Origin: Patescibacteria group bacterium
GTDB lineage: Bacteria > Patescibacteriota > Microgenomatia > Levybacterales > UBA12049
Direction of reading: 5' to 3'
NCBI GenBank assembly: GCA_026004395.1
Contig: BPJB01000001.1
Span: forward strand, 584,910-648,909
Length of the DNA: 64,000 nt
Part shown: in pieces, positions 6,394 to 35,638 of the stretch
Position numbering within the stretch: position 1 is the stretch's first letter
Layout: the number at the start of each line of letters is the position of its first letter
Program-made: the position numbers and the translations under genes
Notes under the pieces: model-generated
The model's database searches: none
What the model saw: only the letters and a program-made list of their open reading frames with translations
Told to the model about the DNA's origin: nothing

Positions 6394-6394
6394 A

Positions 6395-12280: not shown

Positions 12281-14356
12281 ATGGGTAAAGAAAATTTACG
12301 AGGAGAAAGTACAAAACCTCAAGACTTACTTCATGAAGGTCCCAAACTAACTCATCGTTTTTATGAAAGCATCAACATCTATCTTCAAGATGCACAACGC
12401 AACGGAGTATTACGTCCTCATCAACGTGATGTTTTCGAAAGCTTTCAACGGTTTTTTCAAGAGGGCTATACAAGAGGTTTTATTGAATTACCAACTGGAA
12501 CAGGTAAGACTGTTTTATTTGTTGAATTATCTAAAGCATTATTGAACACCGATCCTAGTCTTCCTCGACCCAAAATACTAGTCGTAACACCTACAAAAGA
12601 TCTGGTTCAGCAAATAATGGGTAGAACTGGAGAAAAAGGATATGGGAAATTTGCCCCTGAGTTAAAAGTTGGATCCTTTTTCAGTGATACACCAGATAAA
12701 GAAAAAACAGAAGAAGCTCTAGATATGTATGATGTAGTAGTCACAACATATAACTCTTTCTCTATTCTTAATAAAAGAAATGAATATCGCCCAATCACAG
12801 ATACAGATAAACAACTACTCTTGCAAGAGTATCAGTCTTCCAGAATTTCAGAATATATAGACAAAGAAGAAATACATCACCTTGTAAGTAGTATTAAATA
12901 TATTCCAACAGGCAGAAATTTATTGAATAAATTTGATGTGTTTATCTTGGATGAAGCACATCATACTTTAGGTGTTAAAACCGGGAGCATAGTTAACTCT
13001 CTGCCTCCAAATAAAGTAATTCTTGGATTCACTGCAACACCTGATGCTAGCCAACAAAAAAAATTAATTCATTACCTTCCTGAAAAAATACATTCTCTTG
13101 AACTAAATGAAGCGATATGGCTGGGATTATTAGCACCTATCGTACCGATTGGAATAAAAAGTGGTATCCACATTCGAGGTTCAAACCTCTACGACGACTC
13201 AGGAGACTTTATTGATAGTAGAATCAGATATTTAGCAGAGGACCCTAAAAGAAATAGACTTATCATAGAAGCAGCTAAATCCTTAACACAACATGGTATT
13301 GGTACAGTTATTTCATGTATTGCAGGAAATGAAGCTTGGCATGCAAGATACTTAGCTGAAAAACTTGAAAGAGAAGGAGTCCGAGCTGTTGCTGTACATA
13401 GAGGTGTTCCTTCACAAGAACGTCAGGAAATATACCAACAATTTGAAAAAGGTGAAATTGATGTACTTACTTTTATTGGTGTACTAAGTGAGGGTTGGGA
13501 TAGTTACAGAGCAAAAGCTATGATTGGAGCTAGACCTACTCGATCGATAATCTTTTCAAAACAAAGAGTTGGACGTATAACTAGACCCGGCGGAATCGCT
13601 TTTGCAATTGACATTTGGGATGAGTATGAAGATAAAAATCCTGCGATTAATGTAGCAGACATATTGAACGAAGGAGATATACCATTAGGTAGTACAGTAG
13701 GAATAGCAGAAGATAGAGGAATTATCCAGCAGGTAATTGCATCTTTGACAGAAACTACACCCTTAATGACTGTATTACCAAGTAATTATAAAAACTATGA
13801 AGAATTATTATCTGATTTAGATGTACTTAATAAAGGTGTTCTTGTAAGTTATGACCGCAAACAAACTCCGGAATGGGCTATAGCGTCACGAATAACTTCA
13901 ACATATTCAGGAGTAACAGATGAAATTTTCGCAAAAATTGAAGAACTAAAGGGAATAAAGATCAGTAAAAAACTTGCGAGACAGGGTAATTCAATCAGAA
14001 CAGTATATAGTGTAAACCAAGCTAAAGACTTACTCTACAAATTACCAAAAATTGATCCTCGTAAATACTTCATAGATGAAAAAGGAGTTAAAAGAATCTC
14101 ACCTGAAGGCCTAGTAGTATTATTTGGTAAAAGATATCCTAATTTAAATCTAGAAATTGTTCAAGAGCAACTTGAAAAAATTGAAGATCAATTAGATTGG
14201 ATACCTGCTTGCTATCAATTAACAAGAGAAGGGTCACAATATAGGAATTATAAGGTAATTAAAATATACAATGCTGAACAAAAAACAATTGATCTTCTTA
14301 ATCAGGCACTATCGGAATATTTTCAACAAACTTTATTGGATAAAAGGCAAATATAG
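12281..14356 (+). CDS. Superfamily-2 DEAH-box helicase (ResIII-like N-lobe plus helicase C-lobe) with an unassigned C-terminal extension of about 250 aa.
   Basis: Motif I is LPTGTGKTV, Ia is LVVTPTKDL, II is DEAHH, III is TATP, and VI is QRVGRITRP. The C-terminal extension (aa about 445-691) carries no recognised motif. Confidence 0.8.
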   Translation: MGKENLRGESTKPQDLLHEGPKLTHRFYESINIYLQDAQRNGVLRPHQRDVFESFQRFFQEGYTRGFIELPTGTGKTVLFVELSKALLNTDPSLPRPKILVVTPTKDLVQQIMGRTGEKGYGKFAPELKVGSFFSDTPDKEKTEEALDMYDVVVTTYNSFSILNKRNEYRPITDTDKQLLLQEYQSSRISEYIDKEEIHHLVSSIKYIPTGRNLLNKFDVFILDEAHHTLGVKTGSIVNSLPPNKVILGFTATPDASQQKKLIHYLPEKIHSLELNEAIWLGLLAPIVPIGIKSGIHIRGSNLYDDSGDFIDSRIRYLAEDPKRNRLIIEAAKSLTQHGIGTVISCIAGNEAWHARYLAEKLEREGVRAVAVHRGVPSQERQEIYQQFEKGEIDVLTFIGVLSEGWDSYRAKAMIGARPTRSIIFSKQRVGRITRPGGIAFAIDIWDEYEDKNPAINVADILNEGDIPLGSTVGIAEDRGIIQQVIASLTETTPLMTVLPSNYKNYEELLSDLDVLNKGVLVSYDRKQTPEWAIASRITSTYSGVTDEIFAKIEELKGIKISKKLARQGNSIRTVYSVNQAKDLLYKLPKIDPRKYFIDEKGVKRISPEGLVVLFGKRYPNLNLEIVQEQLEKIEDQLDWIPACYQLTREGSQYRNYKVIKIYNAEQKTIDLLNQALSEYFQQTLLDKRQI

Positions 14357-14460
14357 AATTTGATAAAAGATTAGATATTAGATAGATATTAGACAATTTA
14401 ATTAAGGAAGGTCGAAAAAGTATATGACTTATACATTGCCTAGATTGAATATAATATGAT

Positions 14461-14934
14461 ATGGAACAATATAAAGAACATAAACACAGAGAAGTACAAC
14501 AAACTTATGAACAAAAGGGTATATCAGAGCTAAATCAACTGCTAAAGAACCCAACGTTGCAGGAACGATTTATCGCAGTTCAGACAGCACCTCAACAGGA
14601 ACAGTTATCAACTGTATATAAGGAAATCGACAAGACCGTAGAGCAGAGAATAAAACCACTTATAGAAGATCAGGCAGCAACTGCACTTGGATTAACTAGC
14701 ATAGAAGAAGGACGAAAATATGGCAAGAAATGGGGAGAAGCCTTACGTGCTATCTCGGAAATAGAAATAAATTTAATAAATGGTGAAAAAATGAGAATGC
14801 CATTAGATCAAGCAAGAGAATACTTTAGAAATCAACTTGAAAATGAGTTTGCAGCTCGAATATCAGAAGCACAAGAGGCTTTGTCCAATTCTGTAATAGC
14901 TAAGAAAAAAAATTTTAGCAAGTTTAGAACTTGA
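14461..14934 (+). CDS. Hypothetical protein (157 aa, predicted helical).
   Basis: It is on the same strand as the cassette, 105 nt after the helicase. No motif was recognised. Confidence 0.4.
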   Translation: MEQYKEHKHREVQQTYEQKGISELNQLLKNPTLQERFIAVQTAPQQEQLSTVYKEIDKTVEQRIKPLIEDQAATALGLTSIEEGRKYGKKWGEALRAISEIEINLINGEKMRMPLDQAREYFRNQLENEFAARISEAQEALSNSVIAKKKNFSKFRT

Positions 14935-14974
14935 GCTTAGTAATAGAAAAAACGATCCACAATTACTCGATGCA

Positions 14975-15439
14975 ATGGGAGTTTGGGGTAGATCGCCAGA
15001 TTCATCAGGAGATCTTGGAGTTAATGATCAAGGATACCACGCAGGAGTAATTCATTACTTTGAGTACAGAGCCGATGCGGAAAAGAATGGCAGATACAAA
15101 AACACTGAGGGTGAGATAAGTATTGATGGTTTTATTAAATTTTCCAATCGTCTAAGAAGTTTCATAGATAATCCCAATCCCCAAAACAACGCTGAAGTTA
15201 AAAACGCCACCATTATTGAGGACGAGCAAGGTAATAGAAGGTTATATGTCTTAACAGATAAAGGTGAATTTATTGTTGGTTTTGAGAACGCACAAAATCA
15301 GGAGCCTATGCGAGTAATTACCATTATCCCAGGAAGAAATGACAAAGATTATGCAAATGCTGTTAATACTGAACTTGAAGGAAAAAATGACAGAAATAGA
15401 CTAAACAAATTACATGGCGCAAGACGTATCATCAGTTGA
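14975..15439 (+). CDS. Hypothetical protein (154 aa, beta-rich). It is the last gene of the cassette.
   Basis: It begins 41 nt after the previous gene. No recognisable motif is present. The sequence HYFEYRADAEKNGRYKNTEGEISIDG...YVLTDKGEFIVGF suggests a compact globular domain. Confidence 0.4.
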   Translation: MGVWGRSPDSSGDLGVNDQGYHAGVIHYFEYRADAEKNGRYKNTEGEISIDGFIKFSNRLRSFIDNPNPQNNAEVKNATIIEDEQGNRRLYVLTDKGEFIVGFENAQNQEPMRVITIIPGRNDKDYANAVNTELEGKNDRNRLNKLHGARRIIS

Positions 15440-15635
15440 TATACATTATACTTCATATTTGAGCAAACACAACTCTTAAATACTATACTTGAGGATTAAC
15501 TCAAGAAAAGAGATTAATATAAAAACCAAAGCAAATGAACAAATCAATGTTAATTGTATTTTGGTTGGCTGTATATTGATTAAGGATAAAATATACCTTG
15601 CATTTCTTCAAAAAATATGTTTTGCTATAGATAGC

Positions 15636-15735
15636 ATACCGAGAGGCCGTTTTGGCCCGGCAACCGAGAGTATTACGGTGCCATTGCAGCAATGCATATG
15701 TGCCAGTGAAAACTGGAAATACTTAAGGCCTCTCG
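15636..15735 (+). promoter_or_regulatory. SAM-responsive riboswitch (SAM-I/SAM-IV-like core) in the metK leader.
   Basis: The P1 arms are gagaggcc (15641) and ggcctctc (15728). The conserved core strings GGCCCGGCAACC and GGUGCCAUUGCAGC are present, as is the P4-like hairpin ccagtGAAAactgg. The 3' P1 strand overlaps the 5' arm of the downstream terminator, so mutually exclusive folds are possible. It sits immediately upstream of metK. Confidence 0.6.
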
Positions 15736-15752
15736 TATGGAGAGGTTTTTTT
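15727..15752 (+). terminator. Intrinsic terminator (expression platform of the SAM riboswitch).
   Basis: The hairpin cctctc-gtatg-gagagg is followed by TTTTTTT and ends 2 nt before the metK ATG. Confidence 0.65.
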
Positions 15753-15753
15753 A

Positions 15754-16860
15754 ATGAATTCATTTACATTTACCTCAGAGTCTGTTTGTGCAGGACATCC
15801 TGACAAGATCTGCGATCAAGTCAGCGATGCTATTGTAGATGCAATTCTTCAACAAGATCCATTTGGAAGAGTCGCAGTTGAGACAGTGGCTGCCAAAAAT
15901 CGTTTGATTATCGCAGGTGAGGTATCCACCACAGCCGTTGTAAACTACGAAAAAATTGCTCGAGACTTGATTAAAAGTCTTGGCTACCTTGATCCTGAAT
16001 ATGGTTTTTCTTATCTTGTGCCGATAGATATTTATATTCATGAACAATCCGCTGAAATTGCGTGCGGAGTTAAGAAAAAGGGTGCAGGAGATCAAGGCAT
16101 GATGTTTGGATTTGCCTGTAAAGAAACAGAAAATCTTATGCCTCTTCCTATATCTTTGGCACATGCTCTAACCCAAGGTATTGATAAAGCCCGAGAGACA
16201 AAATCTATACCTTATCTTAGACCGGATGGTAAAAGCCAAGTAACTGTTGCGTACCAAAATAACAAACCAACAAGAGTAACATCTGTCGTTCTTGCTGTAC
16301 CTCACGATGAAAATGTATCTCTTGATGATGTTAAAAAAGAATTGTATGTAAAAGTAGTTTCTCCTGTGCTCCATACATATGGATATTCGATAACTGAAGA
16401 TAAATTAATTGTGAATGGCACAGGCATATGGCATAGAGGGGGACCTGCTTCAGACACAGGGCTTACAGGACGAAAGATAGTCGTTGATACCTACGGAGGA
16501 TACTCAAGAGTAGGTGGCGGAGCATTTAGCGGTAAAGATCCAACAAAGGTTGACAGATCAGGAGCTTATGCTGCACGCTTCCTTGCAAAGAATATAGTTG
16601 CTGCAGGACTTGCTGACAAAGTTGAGGTGAGACTTGCATACTTTATTGGAGGTAGGAAGCCAATTATGCAAGAGGTGGAGACATTTGGTACAGAAAAGAC
16701 ATCGCCAAGATGTATCCGTGATTTTATGCTCAATTTGCTAGATACCTCTGTAGAAGGAATTCTTGAAGGCTTAAACTTACAAAGACCCATCTACCTTCCA
16801 ACAGCTACTTATGGTCATTTCGGAAGAGATAATTTTACGTGGGAGAAGGTAATAAAATAA
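15754..16860 (+). CDS. metK: S-adenosylmethionine synthetase.
   Basis: The N-terminus contains GHPDKICDQVSDAIVDAIL, and the GAGDQG and GGGAFSGKDPTKVDRSGAY loops are present. The length is 368 aa. Confidence 0.95.
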   Translation: MNSFTFTSESVCAGHPDKICDQVSDAIVDAILQQDPFGRVAVETVAAKNRLIIAGEVSTTAVVNYEKIARDLIKSLGYLDPEYGFSYLVPIDIYIHEQSAEIACGVKKKGAGDQGMMFGFACKETENLMPLPISLAHALTQGIDKARETKSIPYLRPDGKSQVTVAYQNNKPTRVTSVVLAVPHDENVSLDDVKKELYVKVVSPVLHTYGYSITEDKLIVNGTGIWHRGGPASDTGLTGRKIVVDTYGGYSRVGGGAFSGKDPTKVDRSGAYAARFLAKNIVAAGLADKVEVRLAYFIGGRKPIMQEVETFGTEKTSPRCIRDFMLNLLDTSVEGILEGLNLQRPIYLPTATYGHFGRDNFTWEKVIK

Positions 16861-17127
16861 ATAGTTTTACCCACCTTAGACGATCCATTAGACGAGTAGA
16901 ATAATCACCTATATTAGGGTGATTCATTGGATCACTCGTCTCCATTGGAATCACTTGTCCCTCTATCATCCAGAGATTTCTCACTATTTTCTTCGGAGTT
17001 GCCGCTTTTCAGATCAGATGTATCGTAGTCTGGATCCATAGTATCTACACCTCCACTATCAAATGTGGAAAGCATAGGGGATCTAGACAAGAATTACATG
17101 AAGAATGCGTAAGAAATAAAAAATAAA

Positions 17128-17328
17128 CTACTTTTGTTTTAACACTTGCCCAAGGAGTTTGTATGTTTCTTCCATTGCTTGTCTTGTTGTCATCCCTTGA
17201 GATTTAGCTGCTTCCTCAAAAGTCTTGGTAGTAATTGATTTTCCGTTGGGATCAAAACCTGCATGACCAACACCCATATCATCATCAGGAAGACCACAAC
17301 CACAGTTAAAACACATATTATAAATCAC
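17128..17328 (-). CDS. Small Cys-containing hypothetical protein (66 aa).
   Basis: It contains a CFNCGCG motif. No family was recognised. Confidence 0.3.
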   Translation of the reverse strand: MIYNMCFNCGCGLPDDDMGVGHAGFDPNGKSITTKTFEEAAKSQGMTTRQAMEETYKLLGQVLKQK

Positions 17329-17384
17329 CTCCTTTTAGAATAATTTTATATTAGTTATCATAACTCAAACAATTTTAAAACAAA

Positions 17385-18074
17385 CTAAGGCCGCCACCCT
17401 TCATACGTAAAATAATTTTCTACCTGCCCAATACAAACATACGGCGTATCCTCTCTCATATTCTCAGCATGCCCAGAAGAGGCAATCCAAATGTCAACAA
17501 CTTTGGTATAATCAGATATCATTGCAATATTCTCAGTTACCTTTGTATAGGAAGGATAGGGAAGAGAATTATCTTCAATTCTTCGCCTAAAACCATCATG
17601 ATTAAAGGAACGCGATATCTCCTCTGCTCTTAGTTGAGCAAAGTTACAAGTATATGGATCAGTCTGAACTTTATAAAGGCCTTGAGAAACTCGAAATTCA
17701 TTAATTTTTTGCAGTATATAATCTTTGATATTTTCTGATTTACCTATTAGAGAAGATGTGGGAGTAACTGATGTTGTGACTGCAGTCGGAGTAACTGAGG
17801 GTTTGTAAACAGGAGTAGATACAAGAGTGGGTGTTGGAATTGACGAAGAAATGTTACGTGAATTAGGTAAAGTATGAGGTGTTGGAGAAAGTTTTTTATT
17901 CTGCACAGAATCTCGAGAGTAGATGACTTTTGGAGGATTATTTTGAGAAGCTAAAGAAACATGGGATTTAAATAGAATTGTACGAGAAATTACTGAAAAA
18001 AAATAAAAAATCAATACTGCAATGACAATAATCGGCAGGACAAAAAGAAGTACCTTCCGCATGAATAAATACAA
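17385..18074 (-). CDS. Membrane-anchored CAP/SCP/PR-1-like (YkwD-type) domain protein with a Ser/Thr/Pro-rich linker.
   Basis: There is an N-terminal TM segment and then an STP-rich linker. The C-terminal domain shows F..LRAEEISRSFNHDG ... SSGHAENMREDTPYVCIG, matching the CAP motif pattern (H...GEN..., S.GH..N.L). Confidence 0.45.
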   Translation of the reverse strand: MYLFMRKVLLFVLPIIVIAVLIFYFFSVISRTILFKSHVSLASQNNPPKVIYSRDSVQNKKLSPTPHTLPNSRNISSSIPTPTLVSTPVYKPSVTPTAVTTSVTPTSSLIGKSENIKDYILQKINEFRVSQGLYKVQTDPYTCNFAQLRAEEISRSFNHDGFRRRIEDNSLPYPSYTKVTENIAMISDYTKVVDIWIASSGHAENMREDTPYVCIGQVENYFTYEGWRP

Positions 18075-18148
18075 TACTTTTTCTTATGAATTTTGTCAAT
18101 CACTTACTCAAAGGCGTATATTAATGCAAAGATTTACAACTGAGGCTA

Positions 18149-18598
18149 TCAACTCTCCCGAATGCGTTCTTCTGCTTCATCAATCAGCTTTGCTGTATTG
18201 AGCTCATCATTTTCATATCCTTCGCCACTGTTATCCTTGTCATAATCTAGACCATAGCGACGAGCCATTTCACCAACGTCCTCTCCTGTTGGAGCTGGCT
18301 CTGATCCCCCCTCAGGATCTTGCTGACCCAAACTTTCAGGACTCATATAAGGAGCCTCAGAAGATAAAGTATCTCGCTCTGCATCAGCAATATCTTCATT
18401 ACCTTCTATCATCAATTCATCTGAATATCCATCCTCATCCACTTTGATGTTTTCATCAATCTTAATTGTATCTTTTTCCTCTATTTCAGGTATTGTTGCT
18501 TGTTTCTTCTTATCCATACTAGTGAATAGACTAAACAGTATACGTAAGAAAAAAGATAAAAATTTGTAAAAATCCTGAAAGAGAGTTATTGCCTCCAA
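18149..18598 (-). CDS. Acidic hypothetical protein (149 aa).
   Basis: It is Asp/Glu-rich and overlaps the upstream zinc-ribbon gene by 13 nt. Confidence 0.3.
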   Translation of the reverse strand: MEAITLFQDFYKFLSFFLRILFSLFTSMDKKKQATIPEIEEKDTIKIDENIKVDEDGYSDELMIEGNEDIADAERDTLSSEAPYMSPESLGQQDPEGGSEPAPTGEDVGEMARRYGLDYDKDNSGEGYENDELNTAKLIDEAEERIRES

Positions 18599-18858
18599 CG
18601 TTTAAGTTGAGGAATAATAATTTGTGATAATGAGCGTGCTTTGCTTTCATTCATTTTAAGACCATTTACCATATACGATGTTGAGCTCTCAATCATCTGA
18701 GAAAGAGTCATATTAGGATCAATAAATAAACCATTTTGAAAACAGTATTTGCAATATTCGGAATTTTCACTGCCATCACTATTTGTTCCATACTGATCAG
18801 GATGGAAAAGTGGAATTCCACAACTTTGACAACGATTTTTCAAAGATTTATTATCCAT
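18586..18858 (-). CDS. Putative zinc-ribbon domain protein.
   Basis: CQSCGIPL...YCKYCFQNG gives two CxxC pairs of the Zn-ribbon type in a 90-aa protein. Confidence 0.4.
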   Translation of the reverse strand: MDNKSLKNRCQSCGIPLFHPDQYGTNSDGSENSEYCKYCFQNGLFIDPNMTLSQMIESSTSYMVNGLKMNESKARSLSQIIIPQLKRWRQ

Positions 18859-18881
18859 GAATATAATTTTAATATATCAAA

Positions 18882-20030
18882 TCAAGAAACGAGATTCTTA
18901 TTTTCTTTAATTAAAAAAAGCAGCAAAAATGCAATAATTGACAGAATTAGTGAATATATAAAAGGTACCGACTGTCCTACATACTCCCATAATAATCCTG
19001 CGATAAAAGATGACGGAAGTCCCATCAAGCCAATAATCATTTGAAATCCGCCAAGCGTACTTGCCAAATACTCTTGTGGAGCAAGCTCAGCTGCTAAAGC
19101 TTTCTGTACAGGATCAAGAGATGCTTTATGAAGTCCATACAAAATAAATGCACCAATAATACCAACAAAATTAGAAAATAAAAACATAATTGCTACAACT
19201 CCAATCCAGAGAAGAAAAGATACATGCAAAATCGTTCTTCTTCCAAATTTATCAGATAATTTGCCAAAGGGAAGAGAAAACATCGCCGCAACTAATGTAA
19301 ATACAAGATAGAGCAGAGGTATAGCAATTAATGTAAAACCTTTATTTTCAGCATAAACAAGAAGAAAAGAGTAACTAAATGTACCTAAGGAGAAAATAGC
19401 AGAGAGAAATGTATATAATCTCAAATCAGAAGTGAAATCGCTCAGTCGTATTCCACGAAAAACATCTGAAGATACTGGGCGCTCTTTTATGAATATAATA
19501 ATAAGTAATGCGGCAACCAAAGAAGGAAATGCGGCAAATAAAAAAAGATTCCTGTATCCAAAACTTTTAATAAATAAAATCGCAATCAGAATACCAACAA
19601 CAGCACCTAAATTATCCATCGCTCTAAGTATTCCAAAATTCCGTCCTCTGTTCGACTTATCAGAAATTTCAGATATCATTGCATCTCTTGGAGTACTTCT
19701 GATCTTACCTGATCTATCTAGTATTCTAAATGGAATTATCCAAACCCATGTAGGAGAAAAAGCGTATCCGATACGAGCAACACCTCCAAACAAATATCCT
19801 AGAAAGACAAAAATCTTTCTTTTTTTTAATCTATCTGATAGATATCCAGAAACAGCCTGTGAGAGTGAAACAAGTGCATCTCCTATCCCGTCAATTAATC
19901 CCAGAACTGCCATATTCGCACCTAGAACATTAGTAATAAAAAGTGGCCATACTGAAAACACTATATCTGAACCAACATCATGAAGAAATGACGCAGCGGA
20001 AAAAACAAATAAACCTTTTTTTGTACTCAT
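18882..20030 (-). CDS. MFS transporter.
   Basis: There are about 12 predicted TM segments. An MFS-type loop motif GRLSDKFGRR is present between TM2 and TM3. Confidence 0.75.
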   Translation of the reverse strand: MSTKKGLFVFSAASFLHDVGSDIVFSVWPLFITNVLGANMAVLGLIDGIGDALVSLSQAVSGYLSDRLKKRKIFVFLGYLFGGVARIGYAFSPTWVWIIPFRILDRSGKIRSTPRDAMISEISDKSNRGRNFGILRAMDNLGAVVGILIAILFIKSFGYRNLFLFAAFPSLVAALLIIIFIKERPVSSDVFRGIRLSDFTSDLRLYTFLSAIFSLGTFSYSFLLVYAENKGFTLIAIPLLYLVFTLVAAMFSLPFGKLSDKFGRRTILHVSFLLWIGVVAIMFLFSNFVGIIGAFILYGLHKASLDPVQKALAAELAPQEYLASTLGGFQMIIGLMGLPSSFIAGLLWEYVGQSVPFIYSLILSIIAFLLLFLIKENKNLVS

Positions 20031-20121
20031 AAATCGTTTATAAAGAATCTACTCTTAGTTAGCAACTACTTTTTTAATATTTTTAATATAATTTCTTACC
20101 TCTTCAATCACTCAACGGTTT

Positions 20122-21105
20122 TTGTTAGAATGTAATTCTCATCATATGGAAATATTTACCATTTTGCTGATAATTTTCGGGCTGTCACTTTTTGAGGTAA
20201 TCACAAGCATTGATAATGCAGTTATCAATGCAGAAGTTCTCTCAGGAATGAGCAAAAAAGCTCAAAGATGGTTTCTACTGTGGGGATTTCTTTTTGCTGT
20301 TTTTATTGTTCGAGGATTTTTACCATTTGTTATTATCTTCCTTGCCAACCCACAACTAGGTCCTATCGGAGTACTTGGGGCAGCATTTAATAATGATCCG
20401 CATGTAGCAGAAGCAATTGAACAATCAGCACCTTTTTTGCTGCTAGGTGGAGGAGTTTTTTTAACATTTCTTTTCTTCCACTGGCTTTTTCTTGAACCCA
20501 AAAATTTTGGACTACGCGGAGAAAGATTTTTTCAAGCTCAAGGAGCATGGTTTTTTGCCGTTGTTTCAATTTTACTGACTATAATTGTCTGGCTAGCACT
20601 TAATACTCATCCTATGTTGGCTTTTAGTGCTGTTGTTGGATCAACTGCTTTTTTTATAATTCATGGATTTCGTCAATTTGCAGAAGAACAAGAAAAAAAA
20701 CTTATCAGTGGCAATATGTCAGATATCAGCAAAATTGCCTATCTAGAAGTCCTTGACTCTACATTTTCAATTGATGGTGTAATAGGAGCATTTGCTTTTA
20801 CTTTTTCAGTTCCATTTATTCTTATTGGCAATGGTTTAGGCGCACTGGTACTAAGAAAATTAACAGTAAGTAACATTGAACGCATCAAAAGATACAAATA
20901 TCTTAAAAATGGCGCTATGTATTCTATCCTTTTCTTAGGCATAATTATGATACTTGATAGTTTTGGAGCACATATCCCTCACTGGCTTTCACCTGTCATT
21001 ACATTTGGGACTGTTGGATATTTTTTTCATAAATCGCGCTTGGATATGGAAAAAATTCAAGAAGCTCTTGAACCCTTACCTACTACCAAAAATAAAAAAA
21101 ATTAA
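20122..21105 (+). CDS. TerC/DUF475-family integral membrane protein (start more likely the ATG at 20146).
   Basis: MEIFTILLIIFGLSLFEVITSIDNAVINAEVL carries the SIDNA motif typical of TerC/DUF475. There are multiple TM segments. Confidence 0.5.
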   Translation: MLECNSHHMEIFTILLIIFGLSLFEVITSIDNAVINAEVLSGMSKKAQRWFLLWGFLFAVFIVRGFLPFVIIFLANPQLGPIGVLGAAFNNDPHVAEAIEQSAPFLLLGGGVFLTFLFFHWLFLEPKNFGLRGERFFQAQGAWFFAVVSILLTIIVWLALNTHPMLAFSAVVGSTAFFIIHGFRQFAEEQEKKLISGNMSDISKIAYLEVLDSTFSIDGVIGAFAFTFSVPFILIGNGLGALVLRKLTVSNIERIKRYKYLKNGAMYSILFLGIIMILDSFGAHIPHWLSPVITFGTVGYFFHKSRLDMEKIQEALEPLPTTKNKKN

Positions 21106-21190
21106 ATATCTTGTCTTAATTCTTACAAAAAGAGTTTATAGTAAAATAGATTATCTTAAGAGATTAATCTTCTCTTTTAAACAGTCTTAA

Positions 21191-21994
21191 ATGAAACCCT
21201 GGATTATTTTGATTGCGATAATCTTAAGTAGTATTGCAATAATTGCAGGAATAATATATATAATTATTCAGAAGAAACCTGATTATGTTTCTAGTAAAAA
21301 ACCTATGGATACACAAAATCTAACAGAAGACACAATTAAGATTACTCCCATATCTCATGCTACTATGGTACTTAACATGGCAGGTCAAGTAATCTATGTT
21401 GATCCAGTAGGAGGAGAACAATCTTTTGCAGTACAGGAAGCACCTGATCTTATCCTTATAACTGATATTCATTTTGATCATTTTGACAACCCGACGCTTG
21501 AGAAAGTCTCCAAGAAGGATACTGTTCTTATAGTTCCCAAAGCAGTCGCTGAGAGAATGTCCAAAAAAATTGCAGGAGAGACAGTAATTCTTGCCAATGG
21601 TGAAAAAACAGAGCAGAAAGGAATTCTGATTGAAGCAATCCCAATGTACAATATCCCAGAATCCCCTCAAGCATTTCATACAAAAGGAAGAGGAAATGGA
21701 TATGTGCTAGAAGCCAAAGGAGAGAGGGTATATATCGCTGGCGATACCAGTAATATTCCTGAAATGAGAGCACTCAAAAATATTGATATTGCCTTTATAC
21801 CAATGAATCTTCCCTATACTATGACTGTTGAAGAAGCAGCTGAAGCAGTCGTGGCATTTAAACCCAAGATAGTTCATCCTTATCACTATCGCGGGGAGAA
21901 GGGATTTTCTGATATTAATAAATTCAAAGAATTAGTTAATAAGGCTGACCCTTCTATCAAAGTAGAACTCCTCAATTTCTATCCAAATCAATAA
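21191..21994 (+). CDS. Membrane-anchored MBL-fold metallo-hydrolase.
   Basis: There is an N-terminal TM segment. The metal-binding motif reads LILITDIHFDHFD (HxHxDH-like). A later Asp/His occurs in IAGDTS ... HPYHY. Confidence 0.65.
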   Translation: MKPWIILIAIILSSIAIIAGIIYIIIQKKPDYVSSKKPMDTQNLTEDTIKITPISHATMVLNMAGQVIYVDPVGGEQSFAVQEAPDLILITDIHFDHFDNPTLEKVSKKDTVLIVPKAVAERMSKKIAGETVILANGEKTEQKGILIEAIPMYNIPESPQAFHTKGRGNGYVLEAKGERVYIAGDTSNIPEMRALKNIDIAFIPMNLPYTMTVEEAAEAVVAFKPKIVHPYHYRGEKGFSDINKFKELVNKADPSIKVELLNFYPNQ

Positions 21995-22169
21995 TTAAAA
22001 TTTTCTCTCACTTTATTTAATAATCGTTAAAACAGAATAAGACAAAATCCTGAGAAAAATCTATAAATTAACTTTTTTGGATTTTGATTTAAATTTTGAT
22101 TAGCAAAATCTGGGATTTCAAGCCTGAGTATGGTACAATTGCATTATTAAACACTCAATTTTCACTTAA

Positions 22170-22243
22170 TGCGGGATCGTCTAATGGTAGGACAGCAGAC
22201 TTTGGATCTGCTTATCATGGTTCGAATCCATGTCCCGCAGCCA
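22170..22243 (+). tRNA. tRNA-Gln (anticodon UUG), with the CCA encoded.
   Basis: The acceptor stem is tgcggga/tcccgca. The anticodon stem-loop is gcaga-cTTTGga-tctgc. The T arm is catgg-ttcgaat-ccatg. Confidence 0.7.
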
Positions 22244-22487
22244 AGTAGAACGAGAAGGTCGCAGAGATCCTTTTGGGTTCAATTATCGTGCAATTCGTTA
22301 GGTTCGAAAGTTTTATCTTCCAATTCTCCAAATTAGCAACTTTCGAACCGTTTGGTTCTGACGCTCGAAATACACCTTTGAACGGGAAACTCTCCAAGCT
22401 AACTCAAATAAGTATGGAGGCTAATTAGTCCTCCCAGAACTACTGCAGATTCCTGCAATAAATGCCCAACGAGCTTGTGAAGATAAA

Positions 22488-23031
22488 TTAAGATGAAATT
22501 CCTAAAACTTTTGGTTTATATAGTCTACGCAAAGGATTACCACTATTATCAAGTTTTGGTGAACAATAAAATTGACAAGTGTGCAACTCTTTAATAAACA
22601 TAACTGTTCTATTTGTTTCTATTTCTATTTCCCAACCTGGCAATTTTTGCAAAATTCTGGCAATCTTTCTCTTCTGTGACAACAGTTCACTCCTATTATA
22701 ACTAATCTCTTCTCTTATTCATTTGGGAAGGCTGATTCCCATGCGTTACTAATTCTGATAGCAGTCTTCTCATAAGACCAATCTTCTGGCTCTTGCCAAA
22801 ACTCTCGCTTGCTAGTATCCCAAGTATATCTAGTATCACTTAACCATCCGCTTGTAACACTACATGTTAAATTATAGTAGTGAAGACGCAAGAACACAGA
22901 GCTAAGCCAGCAGTAATACCTTCGCCCTGAAGGGTTGCAAAAACTCCATCACCGCTAACTTTCAATTTATCAAACTGAGGTTTTATCCTATCTTGATCCT
23001 TTAGTGTCGGTTTGTATATATCAGGTCTCAT
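22488..23031 (-). pseudogene. queE: Degraded queE (7-carboxy-7-deazaguanine synthase, radical SAM). It is fragmented across at least three frames and has lost the CxxxCxxC cluster cysteines.
   Basis: Minus-strand translation from the ATG at 23031 (which overlaps the queD stop as ATGA) gives MRPDIYKPTLKDQDRIKPQF...VFATLQGEGITAG, a QueE-like N-terminus, then a stop. In the next frame, FLRLHYYNLTCSVTSGWLSDTRYTWD aligns with the QueE segment FVRLxGCNLRCxxCDTxY, but with C->Y substitutions and a 6-aa insertion in place of the third Cys. Further fragments are 22715..22897 and 22488..22682. Confidence 0.5.
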
Positions 23032-23498
23032 AATCTTCTTCTTAACTTTTTAGCATCTTTCCGTGTGTAAATAGCCACACTTGTGGGTGTCTCCAACAAT
23101 TTGATTGAGCGAAGCCTCAAGTCAGTTTTGTACTTATCTTTTATCTGACCATCAAGTTGGTTGAATATCCATGCGGCAATATTTTCAGAAGTAGTCACTA
23201 AAGGAACAATAATATTTTTTTTATCAATATTCTCTTTAAAAAATCTTACGAGAGCTTTGTCTTTACTCCATACCATGAATCCATGATCTAATTCGTTGTG
23301 GATATGTTCTGTTGCAATTTTTCTAATATCACTAAAATCAATAACCATGCCTTCATCAGAAATTCCCTCTATTCTTACCAAATCACCCTCAACACATATC
23401 TCAGCTTTATATCTATAACAGTGGAAATTTCTACACTGCGAGTGGTGATTAGTCACTCGATGTCCCATATCCCACTGTATTTCTTTTATGACCTTCAT
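23028..23498 (-). CDS. queD: 6-carboxytetrahydropterin synthase (QueD/PTPS family), with a non-canonical metal motif.
   Basis: WDMGHRV...CRNFHCYRYKAEI ... ELDHGF matches the PTPS pattern. However, the canonical CxxxHGH motif reads CRNFHCY here: the Gly is replaced by Cys and the second His by Tyr. Confidence 0.55.
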   Translation of the reverse strand: MKVIKEIQWDMGHRVTNHHSQCRNFHCYRYKAEICVEGDLVRIEGISDEGMVIDFSDIRKIATEHIHNELDHGFMVWSKDKALVRFFKENIDKKNIIVPLVTTSENIAAWIFNQLDGQIKDKYKTDLRLRSIKLLETPTSVAIYTRKDAKKLRRRL

Positions 23499-23544
23499 AT
23501 CATTTATCTTTTTGCTTATTAATCTCTCTATAAAATTGATTTGT

Positions 23545-24081
23545 TAATTTAGAATCCTTTTTAGTAGTCCTCTAATTATTGTAGTTCTCGTAATACAATC
23601 GCTTTTTCTCACGCCCCTCATACTCATGCAAAGATGCTCTGCCTCAATTGTGACCGCTAATCCTCTAGGGTTTAGTTTTTTTCCAACACATCGGCTATCT
23701 GATTGGCAAGATTTTCTTGGGTCTGAAGTCTGTGACTTAAAATTTCTGTTAATCTAACAAATTTAGAAAGCCCAAGTACCCTCCCGTTGGGAACATAACC
23801 AATATGAATTTTCCCAAAAATGGAATCATGTGATGTTCACAAAGACTATAAAATCTTATATTTGTTAGTGTAATTAAGTCCTTGTAACCGTTGCTTTGAA
23901 TGTTTTGAAAAACAACTTTTGGATCTTGAAGATAATCACTAAGCAATTCTTCATACATCCTATAAACTCTCTGGAGAGTTTCAACCAAACCCTCTCTAGA
24001 AATATCCTCACCGAAGAAACTCAACAATTGGGGAACAAAGTTGGTGATTAGTTCTTTTCGAGCACTACTATTGTTAGACAT
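23545..24081 (-). pseudogene. folE: GTP cyclohydrolase I (folE) interrupted by two single-base homopolymer frameshifts.
   Basis: Frame 1 reads ...[11 protein letters not shown] then terminates (track ORF 23749..24165). Frame 3 continues as [48 protein letters not shown] then stops. Frame 2 continues as [25 protein letters not shown]... to a stop at 23545. Each of these segments matches conserved FolE blocks (CEHH, PNGKVxGLSK, RLQxQERLTxQIA, NPRGxAVxxEAEHxCMxMRG). The frame breaks coincide with the A5 run at 23816..23820 and the T7 run at 23676..23682 on the plus strand. Confidence 0.6.
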
Positions 24082-24174
24082 TGTTGGGTTTTTGTCTTGC
24101 CACGGCCTACACTTTTTATTGTACAGGACGCCCAACGACCGTTCCAATAACTGTATTGTAACCAAAACCTATAT

Positions 24175-24528
24175 TTAGTCAAAATTAACAGTTTTAACCT
24201 CAATAGAGCAACCTTTTTGTTTAATAAATATGTGTTTTAATGAACTTTCAAATTCTTTCTTTGTGCGGTTAACACAAATTGATAAATCGAGATTGACAAA
24301 ACCAATTTCGGGGTAAGTAGGGATAACAAGATGAGATTGGGAAAGTATATAGACAAGAGTAATTCCTGTTGGCTTAAAAATATAAGAAACCTTTTTAACT
24401 ACCTTTAAATCTAAATCATAAATGATGTTGTCTGCCAACTTTTCAACAAACACTAAAGAGTTATCAAATGGTTTTATTTTTATAAGCGCAACAAATTGTC
24501 TAATCAATGGTGTAGATTGGTTTATCAT
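24175..24528 (-). CDS. Pyruvoyl-dependent S-adenosylmethionine decarboxylase proenzyme (SpeH-like, small archaeal/bacterial type).
   Basis: GITLVYILSQSHLVIPTYPEIGFVNLDLSIC corresponds to the AdoMetDC core GVTxVxLLxESHISIHTWPExGYAAVDVFTCG, including the self-cleaving Ser in S-H. The length is 117 aa. Confidence 0.5.
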   Translation of the reverse strand: MINQSTPLIRQFVALIKIKPFDNSLVFVEKLADNIIYDLDLKVVKKVSYIFKPTGITLVYILSQSHLVIPTYPEIGFVNLDLSICVNRTKKEFESSLKHIFIKQKGCSIEVKTVNFD

Positions 24529-25489
24529 AGTTGCCTCGTATTATGGGATTCGCCATGGGTGTAACCTCAGCAACATATAACGAGCTTGCGCTTCCCACAG
24601 ATTCAGCCCCTTCATATCTATTGAATCTATCAAATATCCATCTAAGCATTAGTCCCATACCTGTAATTGCATTCTGAATTGGCAAAAACCTCTCCTTAGC
24701 TCTATCACTATTACCGTAACAAAAGTAAATCCTTGCCGCCCTGTTTTCTTGGTCTATCGCGTCTAATGCCCTTGAAACAAAAAGCTGTATTCCTTCTGGT
24801 GTATAAGGTGGGTCCGTAAACACTGTGTCGAATTTGCCTTTCAATTCAGCGGGGATTGGTTCTCTTAAATCGTGCTTTACTCTTTTGATTCTCAGGTTAA
24901 GTTTATCTGAAATAGCTCCTATGTTGTCCAAAATTCTCTCATCGATGTCTACCACTGTTATATCTTGTGCCGATTTAAGGTTTGCGGTCGCGACAGAAGT
25001 AAAGTCGTCATCACCTAAAAACAAGATTTGTTTATCCTTAACATCTCCAAAGAAGTCAAGAAGGGCAACTCTTCTTCCTATAGTTTCAATTGTAGCTGTA
25101 AGCTGGTCAAGACTTCTTTTGGGAACTGTTCTTCTATCCTTGTAACGGGAAAGTAAAGTAACAGATTGCTCATAAACTTCACTTGTGGTTAAAGTTCTCA
25201 GGAGGTCTTCTTCTACCAAAAAATTGTTGTCATACAATCTACTCACTCTTTCAGCTATATCTTTTCTCAAAGAAGTCTCCTTAGATGGATGATTTAAATA
25301 GGCAGATAGAGCTTTTTTTACCTGGTTTAGCGCATTTCTGGACACTCCTACCATCCGAACTAGTTCGTTATTTTCAATAGTTTCACCCCTGGAAAGATGC
25401 CAAAATACATCCAAGACTTTCTTAATTGGCACTCCCGTTTGTTTTGAGACTTCCAAAAATTCTGAATACATCTTTTCCTTTTCACCCAT
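24500..25489 (-). CDS. DUF43/BpsA-like aminopropyltransferase (branched-chain polyamine synthase family) with an N-terminal winged-helix domain.
   Basis: The LFLGDDDFTSVA and VFTDPPYTPEG motifs (DUF43 signature) are present. It overlaps the SpeH-like gene and is co-directional with it, a classic dcAdoMet supply and use pair. Confidence 0.5.
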   Translation of the reverse strand: MGEKEKMYSEFLEVSKQTGVPIKKVLDVFWHLSRGETIENNELVRMVGVSRNALNQVKKALSAYLNHPSKETSLRKDIAERVSRLYDNNFLVEEDLLRTLTTSEVYEQSVTLLSRYKDRRTVPKRSLDQLTATIETIGRRVALLDFFGDVKDKQILFLGDDDFTSVATANLKSAQDITVVDIDERILDNIGAISDKLNLRIKRVKHDLREPIPAELKGKFDTVFTDPPYTPEGIQLFVSRALDAIDQENRAARIYFCYGNSDRAKERFLPIQNAITGMGLMLRWIFDRFNRYEGAESVGSASSLYVAEVTPMANPIIRGNYDKPIYTID

Positions 25490-25756
25490 AGTCTAACCTT
25501 TATTTTATCAAAAAAGCTGTTTGAAGCTACTCGAAATGAATTCTTAGATTACAGTAGTTAGAAGTTGTTGTGTATACTATAGAGTAAGCTCTGGAAATTC
25601 CAGGATATCTAACCAGTTGGCTAGCCTAAAATCGTTCCATTTGTACAGCAAAAGTGGGCAAAATATTCTAATTTATAAATAAATTACTAACTATAATTTA
25701 GAGAAAATTTTTTTATCTGATTTACCATCAATTGCATTTACGACTGACGCAAATAT

Positions 25757-31753: not shown

Positions 31754-32865
31754 AGAATGGAATATTATAGGTTATTAAGTAATTTTAGTCAAATTATTAA
31801 AGAAACTTATTACATAAATTTCCATATAACTATAAGATATTTTATATATCATAACCAATGAATAAGATTTAAAACAACGGTTTTTATCTGTATTATCTAA
31901 ATATTTGTTTTCAATTCAAAGTATCTTAGGTGTTATCATATTTGCGAAAGCAATAGCGACTTCGGAATTTATTAATATATATTAGAATTAGATCAAAAAG
32001 GAGATATACTAGTTATTTTTTTTGATCTCAAAAATTGAAATTGAAAAAAGTGACTTTTATTATGAACTCATTTAGTCTACTTGTTTATGATTAGCAAGAT
32101 AAAGTTTGTCTTTTTATTGAATTGAATATTTATTCCACTTTCCAAAATCTTTTCCAATTTATCTATATATCATTTTCATAAAACTAGCCAAAAACCAGAA
32201 ATCTTCTCTCTTTCAACTGAAGGTAAAAGGGTACTACTAGTTTTTGGCTAATAATTTAATTAAAGTAAAAAACAAAAAAAATAAAATTAATCAAGTTAAA
32301 AAACTTTTTTTAATAATTTGCTTTTTCTAGAATTAATATGTTAGAGATATCTTTTCTACCATGGAAAATATAAAAAATTTAAAATTTATAGAACTAAAAC
32401 AATAACTCAAGTTTGAACTTAGCTCATGTTGTATTAGCGAAATTTGAATAACTGCAGCCAACTGTTGATAATGGCGGTCAAATCACAAGAAGTAATATAT
32501 ACAACGTATTTCTACAATCAAGCTCGAACCTATTTTAGCAATAATTGCTGACATAAACCAATCACTCCCATTGCCGCCAGCCGACATGCGGCAACCTGCC
32601 TCGCAGAAAACTTTTTCTACTGCTCTGATTATGCGCACGACAACAAGAAATTCTCTAAAGAAAGTTTTTCTGTTCTGCTCTGCGCTGAATTATGAGTGTC
32701 GTGGCTTTACGCTTTCGGCTTGGCTGGATGGTTTTTTACGGTTATTGTATTTTTCTTATCCTTACCACACACTCCCGTCGCGAAAAAGATTAAGAAACTC
32801 CAAGTGTATAAAATACTCGTTGTGCTTTCTCTTCTTGTTTGTTATCATTTGAATGTATATTCAAA

Positions 32866-33175
32866 TATGAAAAAGGAAGAACTCAAAAAGGGACTCAAAA
32901 ATAAGCAAGCCATTCTCGCATGTGCGCGAGAATTCAACATGGTCGGCGACCCGACGCGCCTCAAAATCTGTTATCTCCTGTGCCGACACAAAGAGCTTTC
33001 GGTCAGCGAGATAGCAGAGGTTGTTGGAGTCTCAATTTCTGCTGTTTCGCATACACTGCGCAAGCTAAAAAAGGCGAATATGGTGGAAAGCCACCGGAAA
33101 TCACGCACCGTTTATTACCAACTAAAAAATAGAGGTATTGTTAATATTCTTAGACAAAGATTTGCCAATTTATGA
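32866..33175 (+). CDS. ArsR/SmtB-family metalloregulator, the first gene of the mer island. The track ORF 32696 start is an artifactual upstream extension.
   Basis: The HTH reads MVGDPTRLKICYLLCRHKELSVSEIAEVVGVSISAVSHTLRKLKKANMVES. The ATG at 32866 follows the local GC rise. Confidence 0.7.
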
Positions 33176-33534
33176 ACACACCAGAATCAAGGGTACAGCT
33201 AAAAAGAGTATATGACGATTTTGAAAGTACAGATGGATATAGAGTTCTTATTGACAGATTGTGGCCACGAGGCATATCAAAACAAAAAGCAAAAATAAAC
33301 CTTTGGCTGAAAGATATCGCACCAAGCAACGAATTAAGAAAATGGTTTTCTCATGATCCCCAAAAATGGGAAGAATTTACAAATCGTTATGAGGAGGAGT
33401 TGAAAGAAAAAGAAGATATTGTAAACTCTCTTAAAGAAATTATTGCCAAAGAAAAAATTGTCACTTTATTATTTTCTGCCTCTGATGAAAAACATAACAA
33501 CGCTGTCGCTTTGAAGAAAATATTAAAACTATGA
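33172..33534 (+). CDS. DUF488 (YeaO-like) protein.
   Basis: RVLIDRLWPRGISKQKAKINLWLKDIAPSNELRKWFSHDPQKWEEF matches the DUF488 consensus. The start overlaps the arsR stop. Confidence 0.7.
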   Translation: MNTPESRVQLKRVYDDFESTDGYRVLIDRLWPRGISKQKAKINLWLKDIAPSNELRKWFSHDPQKWEEFTNRYEEELKEKEDIVNSLKEIIAKEKIVTLLFSASDEKHNNAVALKKILKL

Positions 33535-34934
33535 AGACATTTGAACTTATTATTATAGGCGGAGGAGCGGGCGCATTTGCAGCTGCAATCAGAGCCAACG
33601 AACTGAAAGCCAAAACCGCTATGATTAACTCAGGCCTTCCATGGGGCGGTACCTGCGTCAATGTAGGCTGTGTTCCCTCAAAAACGCTTCTTTATGCTAG
33701 TGAAGTTTTATATCACGCAAAACATCATGGTGTAGCTGGTATTGAGCTTGAAATACAAAATTTTGATTTTCAAAAGGTAGTTGAGGATGAACTTTCACTT
33801 GTAGAAAAATTGCGCAATGAAAAATACGAAAAAGTACTGAAAAATTTAGAATATGTAACTGCGATTGAAGGCAGGGCAAAATTCGTTTCTCAGAATGAAG
33901 TAGAGGTAAATGGCGAAAAGTTGAGAGCTGAAAAATTTATCATTGCTGCTGGCTCTACTGCCAATGTTTCGCAAATTGAAGGAATACACGAAGTTGGATT
34001 TATTACACACATTGAAGCACTGCGACTTAATTATCAGCCAAAAGAATTAATTGTAATTGGAGCAGGGCCACTGGGATTAGAATTTGCCCAAATGTTTTCC
34101 CGCTTTGGCACAAAGGTAACAATTTTACAGCGCGGCGATTCAATTTTATCATATGCTGAAAAAGAACTCACTGATCGTCTATCAGAAATACTTTCAAAAG
34201 AAGGAATAACAATCAAGACACATGTTGAAGTAAAAAGCGCTCGCATAGAAGATACAAAAAAAGTTGTTTCCTATCATATAGGCAAATCGCAGGAGGAAGT
34301 ATCTGCAGACGAAATACTTGTGGCTACAGGTAAAACACCCAACACGCATGGACTGGGACTCGATATTGTTGAAGTTGAGGTGAATAAAACTTATGCAATT
34401 ATTGTTAATCAATACTTCCAAACCTCCAATCCGAACATCTTTGCTGTTGGCGATATCACCAATTTGCCACTACGCCTTGAAACAACTGCCGGACGAGAAG
34501 GCACGCTTGCCGCTGAAAACGCACTCAAAGGTACAACACTTTCAATTGACTATCACACCGTACCCTATACGATTTTTACCGACCCTCAGATTGCCGGAGT
34601 TGGCTTTACAGAGGAGAAGCTGATTAAACAAATAGGTGTTTGTGACTGTCGTACGACTTCATTTGCAGATGTACCAAAGGCAATTATCATGCGCCGCACA
34701 GAAGGTCTCATCAAAATGGTGATTCATCCCCAGACAAAGCAAATTTTGGGTGTCCATATTCTCGCACCAAACGCTGGAGAACTTATTGCCGAAGCGATGA
34801 TGCTCATAAAAAACAAAAATACAATTGATGATGTTGTAAACTCTTTGCCAATGTTTCCGACGCTTTCTGAAGCGATCAAAATTACCGCGCTGTCTTTTTC
34901 AAAAGACATTTCAAAATTAAGCTGCTGCATATGA
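33531..34934 (+). CDS. merA: Mercuric reductase core (MerA without the N-terminal NmerA/HMA domain).
   Basis: The FAD site is IIIGGGAGAF. The redox-active disulfide motif GGTCVNVGCVPSK matches MerA exactly. The C-terminus has a vicinal Cys pair (...KLSCCI), the MerA hallmark. The gene is followed by merT and merP. Confidence 0.75.
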   Translation: MKTFELIIIGGGAGAFAAAIRANELKAKTAMINSGLPWGGTCVNVGCVPSKTLLYASEVLYHAKHHGVAGIELEIQNFDFQKVVEDELSLVEKLRNEKYEKVLKNLEYVTAIEGRAKFVSQNEVEVNGEKLRAEKFIIAAGSTANVSQIEGIHEVGFITHIEALRLNYQPKELIVIGAGPLGLEFAQMFSRFGTKVTILQRGDSILSYAEKELTDRLSEILSKEGITIKTHVEVKSARIEDTKKVVSYHIGKSQEEVSADEILVATGKTPNTHGLGLDIVEVEVNKTYAIIVNQYFQTSNPNIFAVGDITNLPLRLETTAGREGTLAAENALKGTTLSIDYHTVPYTIFTDPQIAGVGFTEEKLIKQIGVCDCRTTSFADVPKAIIMRRTEGLIKMVIHPQTKQILGVHILAPNAGELIAEAMMLIKNKNTIDDVVNSLPMFPTLSEAIKITALSFSKDISKLSCCI

Positions 34935-35221
34935 AAAAGAGAATAATCAATTTTAAGCACGCAATTCCGAAAGATATTGAGGAAATTTTAGCGGCATCAC
35001 CAAAATTAAAAGCTAAGTGGGATAATCTCACCCAGTTAGCTCAAAATGAGTGGATTTGCTATGTAACAATAGTCAAGAATAGTAAAACCCGACAAAGACA
35101 CCTAAAACGATTAGAAGAAGATTTACTCAACGGCAAAAAGCGGCCATGTTGCTGGCCTGGTTGTCCTCACCGCAATCAAAATACCCAGAAATGGTTTTTA
35201 AAAACGTACAAAGATAACTAA
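34931..35221 (+). CDS. Small YdeI/OmdA-like protein (weak assignment) located inside the mer operon.
   Basis: The C-terminal motif RPCCWPGCPHR is present. Its position between merA and merT suggests an accessory role. The assignment rests on recall only. Confidence 0.3.
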   Translation: MKKRIINFKHAIPKDIEEILAASPKLKAKWDNLTQLAQNEWICYVTIVKNSKTRQRHLKRLEEDLLNGKKRPCCWPGCPHRNQNTQKWFLKTYKDN

Positions 35222-35263
35222 TTTTGACAACTAAAAATTTATTATCTAAGATGCAAGGATGAG

Positions 35264-35635: not shown

Positions 35636-35638
35636 AAT

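Follow-up and report, generated by a model that had tools for sequence, protein, structure and literature searches.

A probably dead preQ0 operon in a Patescibacteria genome from hot spring sediment

The canonical bacterial pathway to preQ0, the 7-deazaguanine precursor of queuosine, runs through FolE, QueD, QueE and QueC, which convert GTP to dihydroneopterin triphosphate (H2NTP), carboxytetrahydropterin (CPH4), carboxydeazaguanine (CDG) and finally preQ0. The cysteine motif of QueE is CX3CX2C in B. subtilis and E. coli and CX14CX2C in the Burkholderia type (NCBIfam TIGR04508, 'queE_Cx14CxxC'). Pseudogenisation of pathways is known from reduced or host-dependent bacteria such as Mycobacterium leprae, Rickettsia and insect endosymbionts; there are also bacteria without queuosine synthesis that depend on salvage. 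The window analysed here, a 64-kb stretch that amounts to 6% of a 1.08-Mb Patescibacteria genome (class Microgenomatia-like), contains a folE-queD-queE cluster in which folE and queE are broken and the predicted QueD protein has lost a conserved histidine. This cluster is judged, with a probability of roughly 88%, to be a dead preQ0 operon, in which selection on de novo preQ0 synthesis would have been relaxed and the pathway would be in the course of erasure by mutation. The genome, KatS3mg089, is a metagenome-assembled genome (MAG), mg089, recovered from sediment of the Katase hot spring; its metaFlye assembly used PacBio HiFi reads alone (PMC9671151). The G+C content of the window is 35%, and where genes are reported below as absent, they are absent from the window.

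The listing of open reading frames (ORFs), three-frame translation and Pfam searches placed five genes in the order bpsA, speH, folE, queD, queE on the minus strand, in the interval 22250-25489:

24500-25489, minus strand: bpsA, branched-chain polyamine synthase (Pfam PF01861, 166 bits)
24175-24528, minus strand: speH, pyruvoyl-dependent S-adenosylmethionine decarboxylase (Pfam PF02675; alignment of homologues; alignment to PDB 1TLU)
23500-24081, minus strand: pseudogene of folE, GTP cyclohydrolase I (alignment with the DNA of sibling folE; tblastn; PF01227 on the N-terminal fragment)
23028-23498, minus strand: queD, 6-carboxytetrahydropterin synthase of the PTPS family (Pfam PF01242, 89.7 bits)
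22497-23031, minus strand: queE pseudogene, codons 1 to ~179 of 260 (alignment with the DNA of intact sibling queE; tblastn; NCBIfam)

Contigs of relatives carry folE (194 aa), queD, a 260-aa queE and queC in a row, several of them with bpsA-speH upstream, and folE, queD and queE were each found full-length, as a single high-scoring segment pair (HSP), at ~30 related loci. Among the sibling loci, which are designated here by L numbers, the complete order bpsA-speH-folE-queD-queE-queC is present in L002/L005 and L008, and bpsA-speH-folE-queD-queE in L009, L011, L035 and L039.

In the window, the queE region (22488-23031) contains four short ORFs in three frames, none with a Pfam match, and tblastn with sibling queE returned three HSPs in three frames. 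The gene lies directly after queD, as in the siblings; its start codon is part of an ATGA overlapping the queD stop (23028-23031), the encoded N-terminus is MRPD...VFATLQGEGITAG, and the N-terminal substrate-binding QGEG motif is kept (VFATLQGEG). An earlier sequence-only reading of this stretch had described the overlap, the recognisable QueE N-terminus and a break into at least three frames, and on these points translation, alignment and tblastn agree with it. Lesions were mapped at base level by DNA alignment to three intact orthologues. There are two 1-bp deletions, within 22895-22908 and 22688-22702, both outside homopolymers, and an in-frame nonsense change, CAA to TAA, within 22712-22723. 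The first cluster cysteine is replaced by Tyr (TGT to TAT, within 22871-22882) and the third by Ser (TGT to AGT, within 22832-22846), with the second kept. Where the family has C-NLT-C-GVPSGWL-C, the window has Y-NLT-C-SVTSGWL-S, which leaves one of the three cysteines of the [4Fe-4S] site. After a frameshift the GGEP motif, which binds S-adenosylmethionine (SAM), reads RSEL; ETNGT has become ETNRT; and similarity ends after codon ~179 of 260, near 22497, so that the last ~80 codons are gone. Two frameshifts, one TAA and the truncation thus stand in place of a continuous ~260-aa ORF.

The segment LHYYNLTCSVTSGWLSDTRY, on which the sequence-only reading had based its claim of lost cluster cysteines, is present, where intact relatives have LHYCNLTCGVPSGWLCDT. 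Two cysteines are indeed lost, but the first of the two tyrosines counted as replacements is native to the family and only the first cysteine became Tyr. The supposed insertion in place of the third cysteine was mistaken: the extra 5-residue stretch between the second and third positions is native, the spacing CX3CX7C being found in 102 of 119 homologues. The TAA, the truncation after codon ~179, the absence of queC and a His-to-Pro change in speH had gone unmentioned.

Whether profile searches would find the fragments unrelated to QueE had been raised with the same reading, and relatedness was upheld. The product stitched across frames scored 27.8 bits against TIGR04322 (E = 1.5e-6), the best of three NCBIfam QueE models (TIGR04322, TIGR03963 and TIGR04508: 24-28 bits, E = 1.5e-6 to 2.5e-5; cut-offs 200-260), and the DNA is colinear with intact sibling queE. 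Intact sibling QueE proteins score 45-73 bits over all five NCBIfam QueE models (67-73 bits on TIGR04322), likewise under the cut-offs. Homology of the remnant to QueE is clear from these alignments, at scores for which equivalog status is unreached even by intact relatives. The best PDB match of the stitched product is the E. coli QueE structure (E = 0.18). Of 60 columns with at least 95% conservation, 11 are altered in the stitched sequence, against a mean of 0.37 and a maximum of 2 in the other homologues. Judged from its lesions, queE is a true pseudogene.

The 260-aa protein of the relatives, with the cluster motif HYC-NLT-C-GVPSGWL-C-DT, is on these alignments a divergent QueE subfamily; the classical CX3CX2C spacing occurs in only 15 of the 119 homologues. 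The CX3CX7C subfamily is large and mostly found in Patescibacteria (e.g. L002 2220-3002 and L003 10468-11250), and spacings of six and eight residues between the second and third cysteines were noted in Lentisphaeria and Saccharibacteria loci. Proteins of the CX3CX7C type are mostly missed by Pfam radical-SAM models and by every NCBIfam QueE cut-off. To our knowledge there is no biochemical study of this spacing, and a literature search found none.

Searches of the window (tblastn with sibling proteins) gave no match for queC or for four further genes of the sibling clusters, encoding a carbamoyltransferase, a family 2 (GT2) glycosyltransferase, serine hydroxymethyltransferase (SHMT) and an RrnaAD-like protein. 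Past the truncated end of queE lie two features:

22350-22500, minus strand: truncated, diverged copy of a conserved non-coding element (85% identity to L008 10848-11001; blastn, nhmmer)
22170-22243, plus strand: tRNA-Gln (UUG), the first intact gene past the decayed region (ARAGORN, Rfam)

The element copy (150 nt, model positions 45-196 of 214) adjoins the queE truncation. In L008 the element stands just after the RrnaAD-like gene that closes the cluster, and a short piece of it is at the same place in L005. The simplest reading of this arrangement is one ~7-kb deletion that starts at queE codon ~179 and reaches ~44 nt into the element; it appears to have taken the queE 3' end, queC and the carbamoyltransferase, glycosyltransferase, SHMT and RrnaAD-like genes. 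Gene order in common with the relatives stops at the tRNA-Gln; the genes beyond it have no tblastn match in sibling loci.

The element itself is a conserved non-coding sequence of ~205-214 nt (mean identity 88%), found at L008 10806-11016, in part in L005, and with differing flanks in 16 metagenome contigs of the Joint Genome Institute (JGI; L084-L100 except L098); the window copy is truncated and unusually diverged. A small RNA gene of Microgenomatia, so far undescribed, is one possible identity; its copies show no compensatory base pairs, being too similar to one another. Three other identities were considered and rejected. An IS3-family insertion sequence (IS; orfA and orfB) occupies L008 11026-12103, just after the element; it lies beyond the element, and IS-free contigs run directly from the element into the post-IS sequence, so that the element is not an IS3 end. 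Stops in every frame exclude a small protein gene, and there was no match to any Rfam family even at E = 10. The idea that an element had integrated at the tRNA-Gln and duplicated its 3' end was rejected, as no second copy was found in the window. The stretch from the tRNA-Gln to the element (22246-22352) is 74% identical to intergenic DNA at L006 8062-8186, the similarity entering the last tRNA bases. The L006 sequence adjoins a frameshifted excisionase-like helix-turn-helix ORF, and the window stretch may be what is left of an integrated element.

The folE gene had been described in the sequence-only reading as frameshifted, which is borne out, although at three sites rather than one. Tblastn with sibling folE gave four HSPs in three frames, and the stitched translation locates three 1-bp deletions, each of them within a run of A or T (T6 to T5 within 23813-23823, an A7 run within 23670-23684, and A6 to A5 within 23556-23567), after which the frame is back to the original at the end of the gene. 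In the longest folE ORF, Pfam PF01227 covers only positions 3-95 of the 179 of the profile, and no continuous ORF of ~190 aa remains. The zinc and catalytic motifs CEHH (CEHHMIP) and HxC (HLCMSMRGV) are legible in the stitched translation, at the level of sequence only, and four conserved columns carry substitutions besides the frameshifts (P36L, G49D, F61I and T126A).

Single-base deletions in homopolymers of a genome assembled from HiFi reads alone raise the question of whether the genes are intact and the frameshifts are consensus errors of PacBio HiFi sequencing or of metaFlye. All three folE frameshifts are of this kind, and a second assembly, the Logan assembly of run DRR290133, which is 100% identical to the window over 13028-24262 (11.2 kb) with every folE and queE lesion included, uses the same run. 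The rest of the window argues against such errors: none of 449 A/T runs of at least 5 nt breaks the frame in its long unbroken ORFs (47,958 bp), versus 3 of 6 in folE (Fisher p = 1.3e-6); frameshifts per base in folE and queE exceed those of the remainder (p = 6e-9); and frame lesions within the window are confined to this locus. The two queE indels lie outside homopolymers, and HiFi errors do not take the form of nonsense, missense or deletion lesions. The queE nonsense change, its 11 conserved-column substitutions, its missing 3' third, the missing queC and the unique substitutions in the queD zinc motif are all left unexplained by consensus error, which is therefore very unlikely. Since the queE indels are outside homopolymers and the other lesions are not HiFi errors, the folE frameshifts are treated here as real, though they are the least secure part of the case. 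An intact queE or queD with canonical motifs, which the sequence-only reading had named as the finding that would speak against it, was found neither in the window nor in the second assembly of the same reads.

The position of the folE lesions in A/T runs, tracts that can undergo slippage, and the preservation of its catalytic motifs would also be compatible with a restoration of the folE and queE frames by programmed ribosomal frameshifting or transcriptional slippage. The runs, however, span only 5-7 nt, and a single transcript would have to be corrected three times independently. A restored queE frame would give no enzyme, lacking two cluster cysteines, GGEP and the C-terminal third, and with queC gone preQ0 would be unmakeable anyway. 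Recoding is accordingly considered extremely improbable, and the frame lesions are read as disabling.

The closest relative, found through a SpeH search, is L101, a 93-kb contig in the Logan assembly of SRR16606022, with 83.7% DNA identity over window positions 22504-25548. Its queD is intact with HGH, and it has a queC ORF with a QueC Pfam match. Its queE keeps the three cysteines and has no indels but carries a stop (TGG to TAG), and its folE has a TAA at codon 18 (L101 10450-12284). These lesions are unlike those of the window and thus of independent origin. Gene calling also split the RrnaAD-like gene of L101 in two (62 and 210 aa).

The ratio of nonsynonymous to synonymous substitution rates (dN/dS) between the window and L101 is 0.14 for bpsA, 0.14 for folE, 0.18 for queD and 0.48 for queE, and 0.71 for speH, where dS is only 0.10. 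For queD and folE these pairwise values alone show no relaxation, and lineage-specific counts were needed. Substitutions specific to the window/L101 pair were counted relative to those specific to the outgroup, L008. The ingroup/outgroup ratio was 2.0 for folE, 2.15 for queE and 1.33 for queD, and 0.66 for the bpsA and speH control; the pooled ratio of the three pathway genes, 1.83, differs from that of the control at p = 2.6e-5. Within the pair, queD has 18 window-specific and 6 L101-specific substitutions, versus 17 and 30 for bpsA (Fisher p = 0.0026). These counts suggest that both lineages have experienced weakened constraint on the pathway, with decay further along in that of the window and queD and folE hit late.

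The queD ORF is uninterrupted (156 aa; the QueD of this clade is a long form of ~155 aa), and PF01242 covers residues 3-146, far above its cut-off of 22.4 bits. Against TIGR03367 the window protein scores 71.9 bits, below the cut-off of 89.25, as does an intact sibling (83.8 bits). More than 1,000 QueD homologues were found, the closest at 79% identity, and alignments were made with 26 homologues and with 119, the latter being the top matches from a search of 5.8 billion proteins. The motif C-x3-HGH reads C-RNF-HCY in the window (G27C and H28Y, codons 23415-23420), the catalytic cysteine four residues before it (C22) being kept; this replacement in a full-length queD had been seen in the sequence-only reading and holds in both alignments. 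The 118 other close homologues have HGH without exception, and so do all 78 related genome loci. Further changes at conserved columns are W135L, K59R and F100L, and none of G27C, H28Y and W135L recurs in any other of the 119 sequences. With 5 of 47 columns of at least 95% conservation altered, it departs from the family more than any other of the 119 (mean 0.5).

In QueD/PTPS structures the zinc site consists of three histidines, two of them in HGH. A direct sequence search of PDB with the window QueD found no match at E <= 0.001; a homologue profile was required, and it aligns the family HGH with the HGH of solved QueD/PTPS chains. The window protein is most likely catalytically dead, a loss of activity that we infer from H28Y because it removes one of the three zinc-binding histidines. 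A different role could also be imagined for it, pterin-related or not and independent of FolE and QueE, with HCY exchanging the His ligand for the adjacent Cys and the metal site retained. G27C would offer a thiolate beside the lost H28, the pairwise dN/dS is 0.18, and repurposing, if true, would explain why this frame alone has stayed open in a decaying operon, between two broken genes. The survival of that frame is unremarkable, however: at the rate of the neighbours (~6 disabling lesions per 1.1 kb), ~2.5 lesions would be expected in 471 bp, and an intact ORF would arise by chance at ~0.08. Without FolE the locus supplies no substrate; W135L and F100L lie away from the metal site; the protein has the most conserved-column deviations of the 119 homologues and a window-specific acceleration of its substitution rate; and HCY occurs in no other sequence among those top matches. 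Repurposing of QueD is therefore unlikely, and decay remains the preferred reading for this gene also.

On this reading of relaxed selection, queE is the most degraded gene, with two frameshifts, a stop, and the loss of two [4Fe-4S] cysteines, GGEP and its 3' third; a deletion would have taken away queC together with ~7 kb of genes downstream; queD is still an open frame but deprived of one zinc-binding histidine; and folE, with its three single-base A/T-run deletions and still legible catalytic motifs, would have been hit most recently. The proposal of the sequence-only reading that the whole route from GTP through CPH4 to CDG is undergoing reductive loss is supported by the frameshifts, by the conserved-column changes (11/60 in queE, 5/47 in queD, four in folE) and by an amino acid change faster than that of bpsA and speH. 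The graded decay, together with the independent stops of L101, suggests that de novo synthesis of the queuosine precursor is dispensable in this small clade. As none of folE, queD and queE would be able to make its product, the 7-deazaguanine base is presumably salvaged from a host or the surroundings, or queuosine has been dispensed with.

Four points weigh against this interpretation. Both assemblies derive from the one PacBio HiFi run DRR290133, and the folE homopolymer deletions are without confirmation by an independent chemistry. The ~7-kb deletion is reconstructed from the gene order of L008 and L005, and the element is not in the 20-kb locus of the closest sibling, L101. The queD ORF is uninterrupted, and its pairwise dN/dS is largely a record of purifying selection in the past. 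Elsewhere in the 1.08-Mb genome there could be a second, intact copy of the pathway.

Other genes of queuosine metabolism were looked for in the window. Pfam scans of all its long ORFs found none of tgt (the tRNA-guanine transglycosylase of the queuosine pathway), queA, queF, queG/H, queC, yhhQ or dpdA, and tblastn with an E. coli Tgt sequence gave no match in the window. There was no Rfam match to a preQ1 riboswitch in the window, and its 8 tRNAs include none of the queuosine targets (Asp, Asn, His and Tyr). In one Saccharibacteria locus, tgt lies within a few kb of the same cluster; thus at least some Patescibacteria that have the cluster encode tgt as well.

The neighbours bpsA and speH had been called intact in the sequence-only reading, which is correct in that both are uninterrupted ORFs with the expected Pfam domains, but for speH only at the level of the ORF. 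BpsA has no deviation at 27 conserved columns of a 64-sequence alignment; it looks functional and serves as an internal control. Codon 70 of speH (24319-24321) is Pro where 37 of 38 homologues have His; the closest sibling has His as well. In an alignment with the T. maritima enzyme (PDB 1TLU), this position corresponds to His68, which is reported to be needed for self-processing, Ser63 being the self-cleavage serine. The serine is present in the window protein (QS, like the siblings), with Pro70 in place of the histidine. Window SpeH may thus be unable to process itself, which would leave BpsA without an aminopropyl donor. In several genomes of Microgenomatia and WWE3 (L005, L008, L009, L011, L035, L039 and the window) the bpsA-speH pair immediately precedes folE-queD-queE, and no functional link between the two gene groups is evident.

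Several features away from the cluster were also noted. In the window, metK (15754-16860) is directly preceded by a SAM-I/IV riboswitch (15629-15732, plus strand; Rfam RF01725, 45.5 bits), and 32696-36046 (plus strand) contains an apparent mercury-resistance-like operon that encodes an ArsR-type regulator, a DUF488 protein, a MerA-like pyridine nucleotide-disulphide oxidoreductase with dimerisation domain, MerT and a heavy-metal-associated protein. LOOT RNA (Rfam RF03000, 82-83 bits) was found at L087 6014-6124 and L006 19698-19814, both on the minus strand. The sibling metagenome contig L003 has its cysteinyl-tRNA synthetase (5761-7352) as four fragments of 132, 206, 102 and 84 aa, by decay or sequencing error.

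The locus documents ongoing gene loss in Patescibacteria, a group usually called already streamlined, and places three stages of decay side by side: a deleted, a shattered and a freshly frameshifted gene. Its queD is annotated as a normal enzyme although it lacks a zinc ligand, and its presence is not evidence of a working pathway in metabolic reconstructions.

Compared with the CX3CX2C and CX14CX2C types of QueE, the subfamily of this clade shares the N-terminal QGEG, the three-cysteine site, GGEP and the overall length, and differs in its spacing, which in most intact members is CX3CX7C, the additional residues lying between the second and third cysteines; the window copy is a pseudogene of this subfamily. 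Like the canonical FolE-QueD-QueE-QueC pathway, the intact relatives have the same families in the same order, in one cluster. Unlike it, the window would have three disabled genes and a deleted queC, and in the clade at large the cluster is joined to the polyamine genes bpsA and speH and its QueE is divergent. A further parallel is the pseudogenisation seen in reduced or host-dependent bacteria, which resembles this locus in its A/T-run frameshifts, nonsense changes, deletions and active-site changes within one dispensable pathway, with neighbours under purifying selection, and differs in that the present case is a free-standing Patescibacteria MAG from a hot spring. Seen against these systems, the locus is an instance of ordinary reductive decay of a dispensable pathway and no new kind of system.

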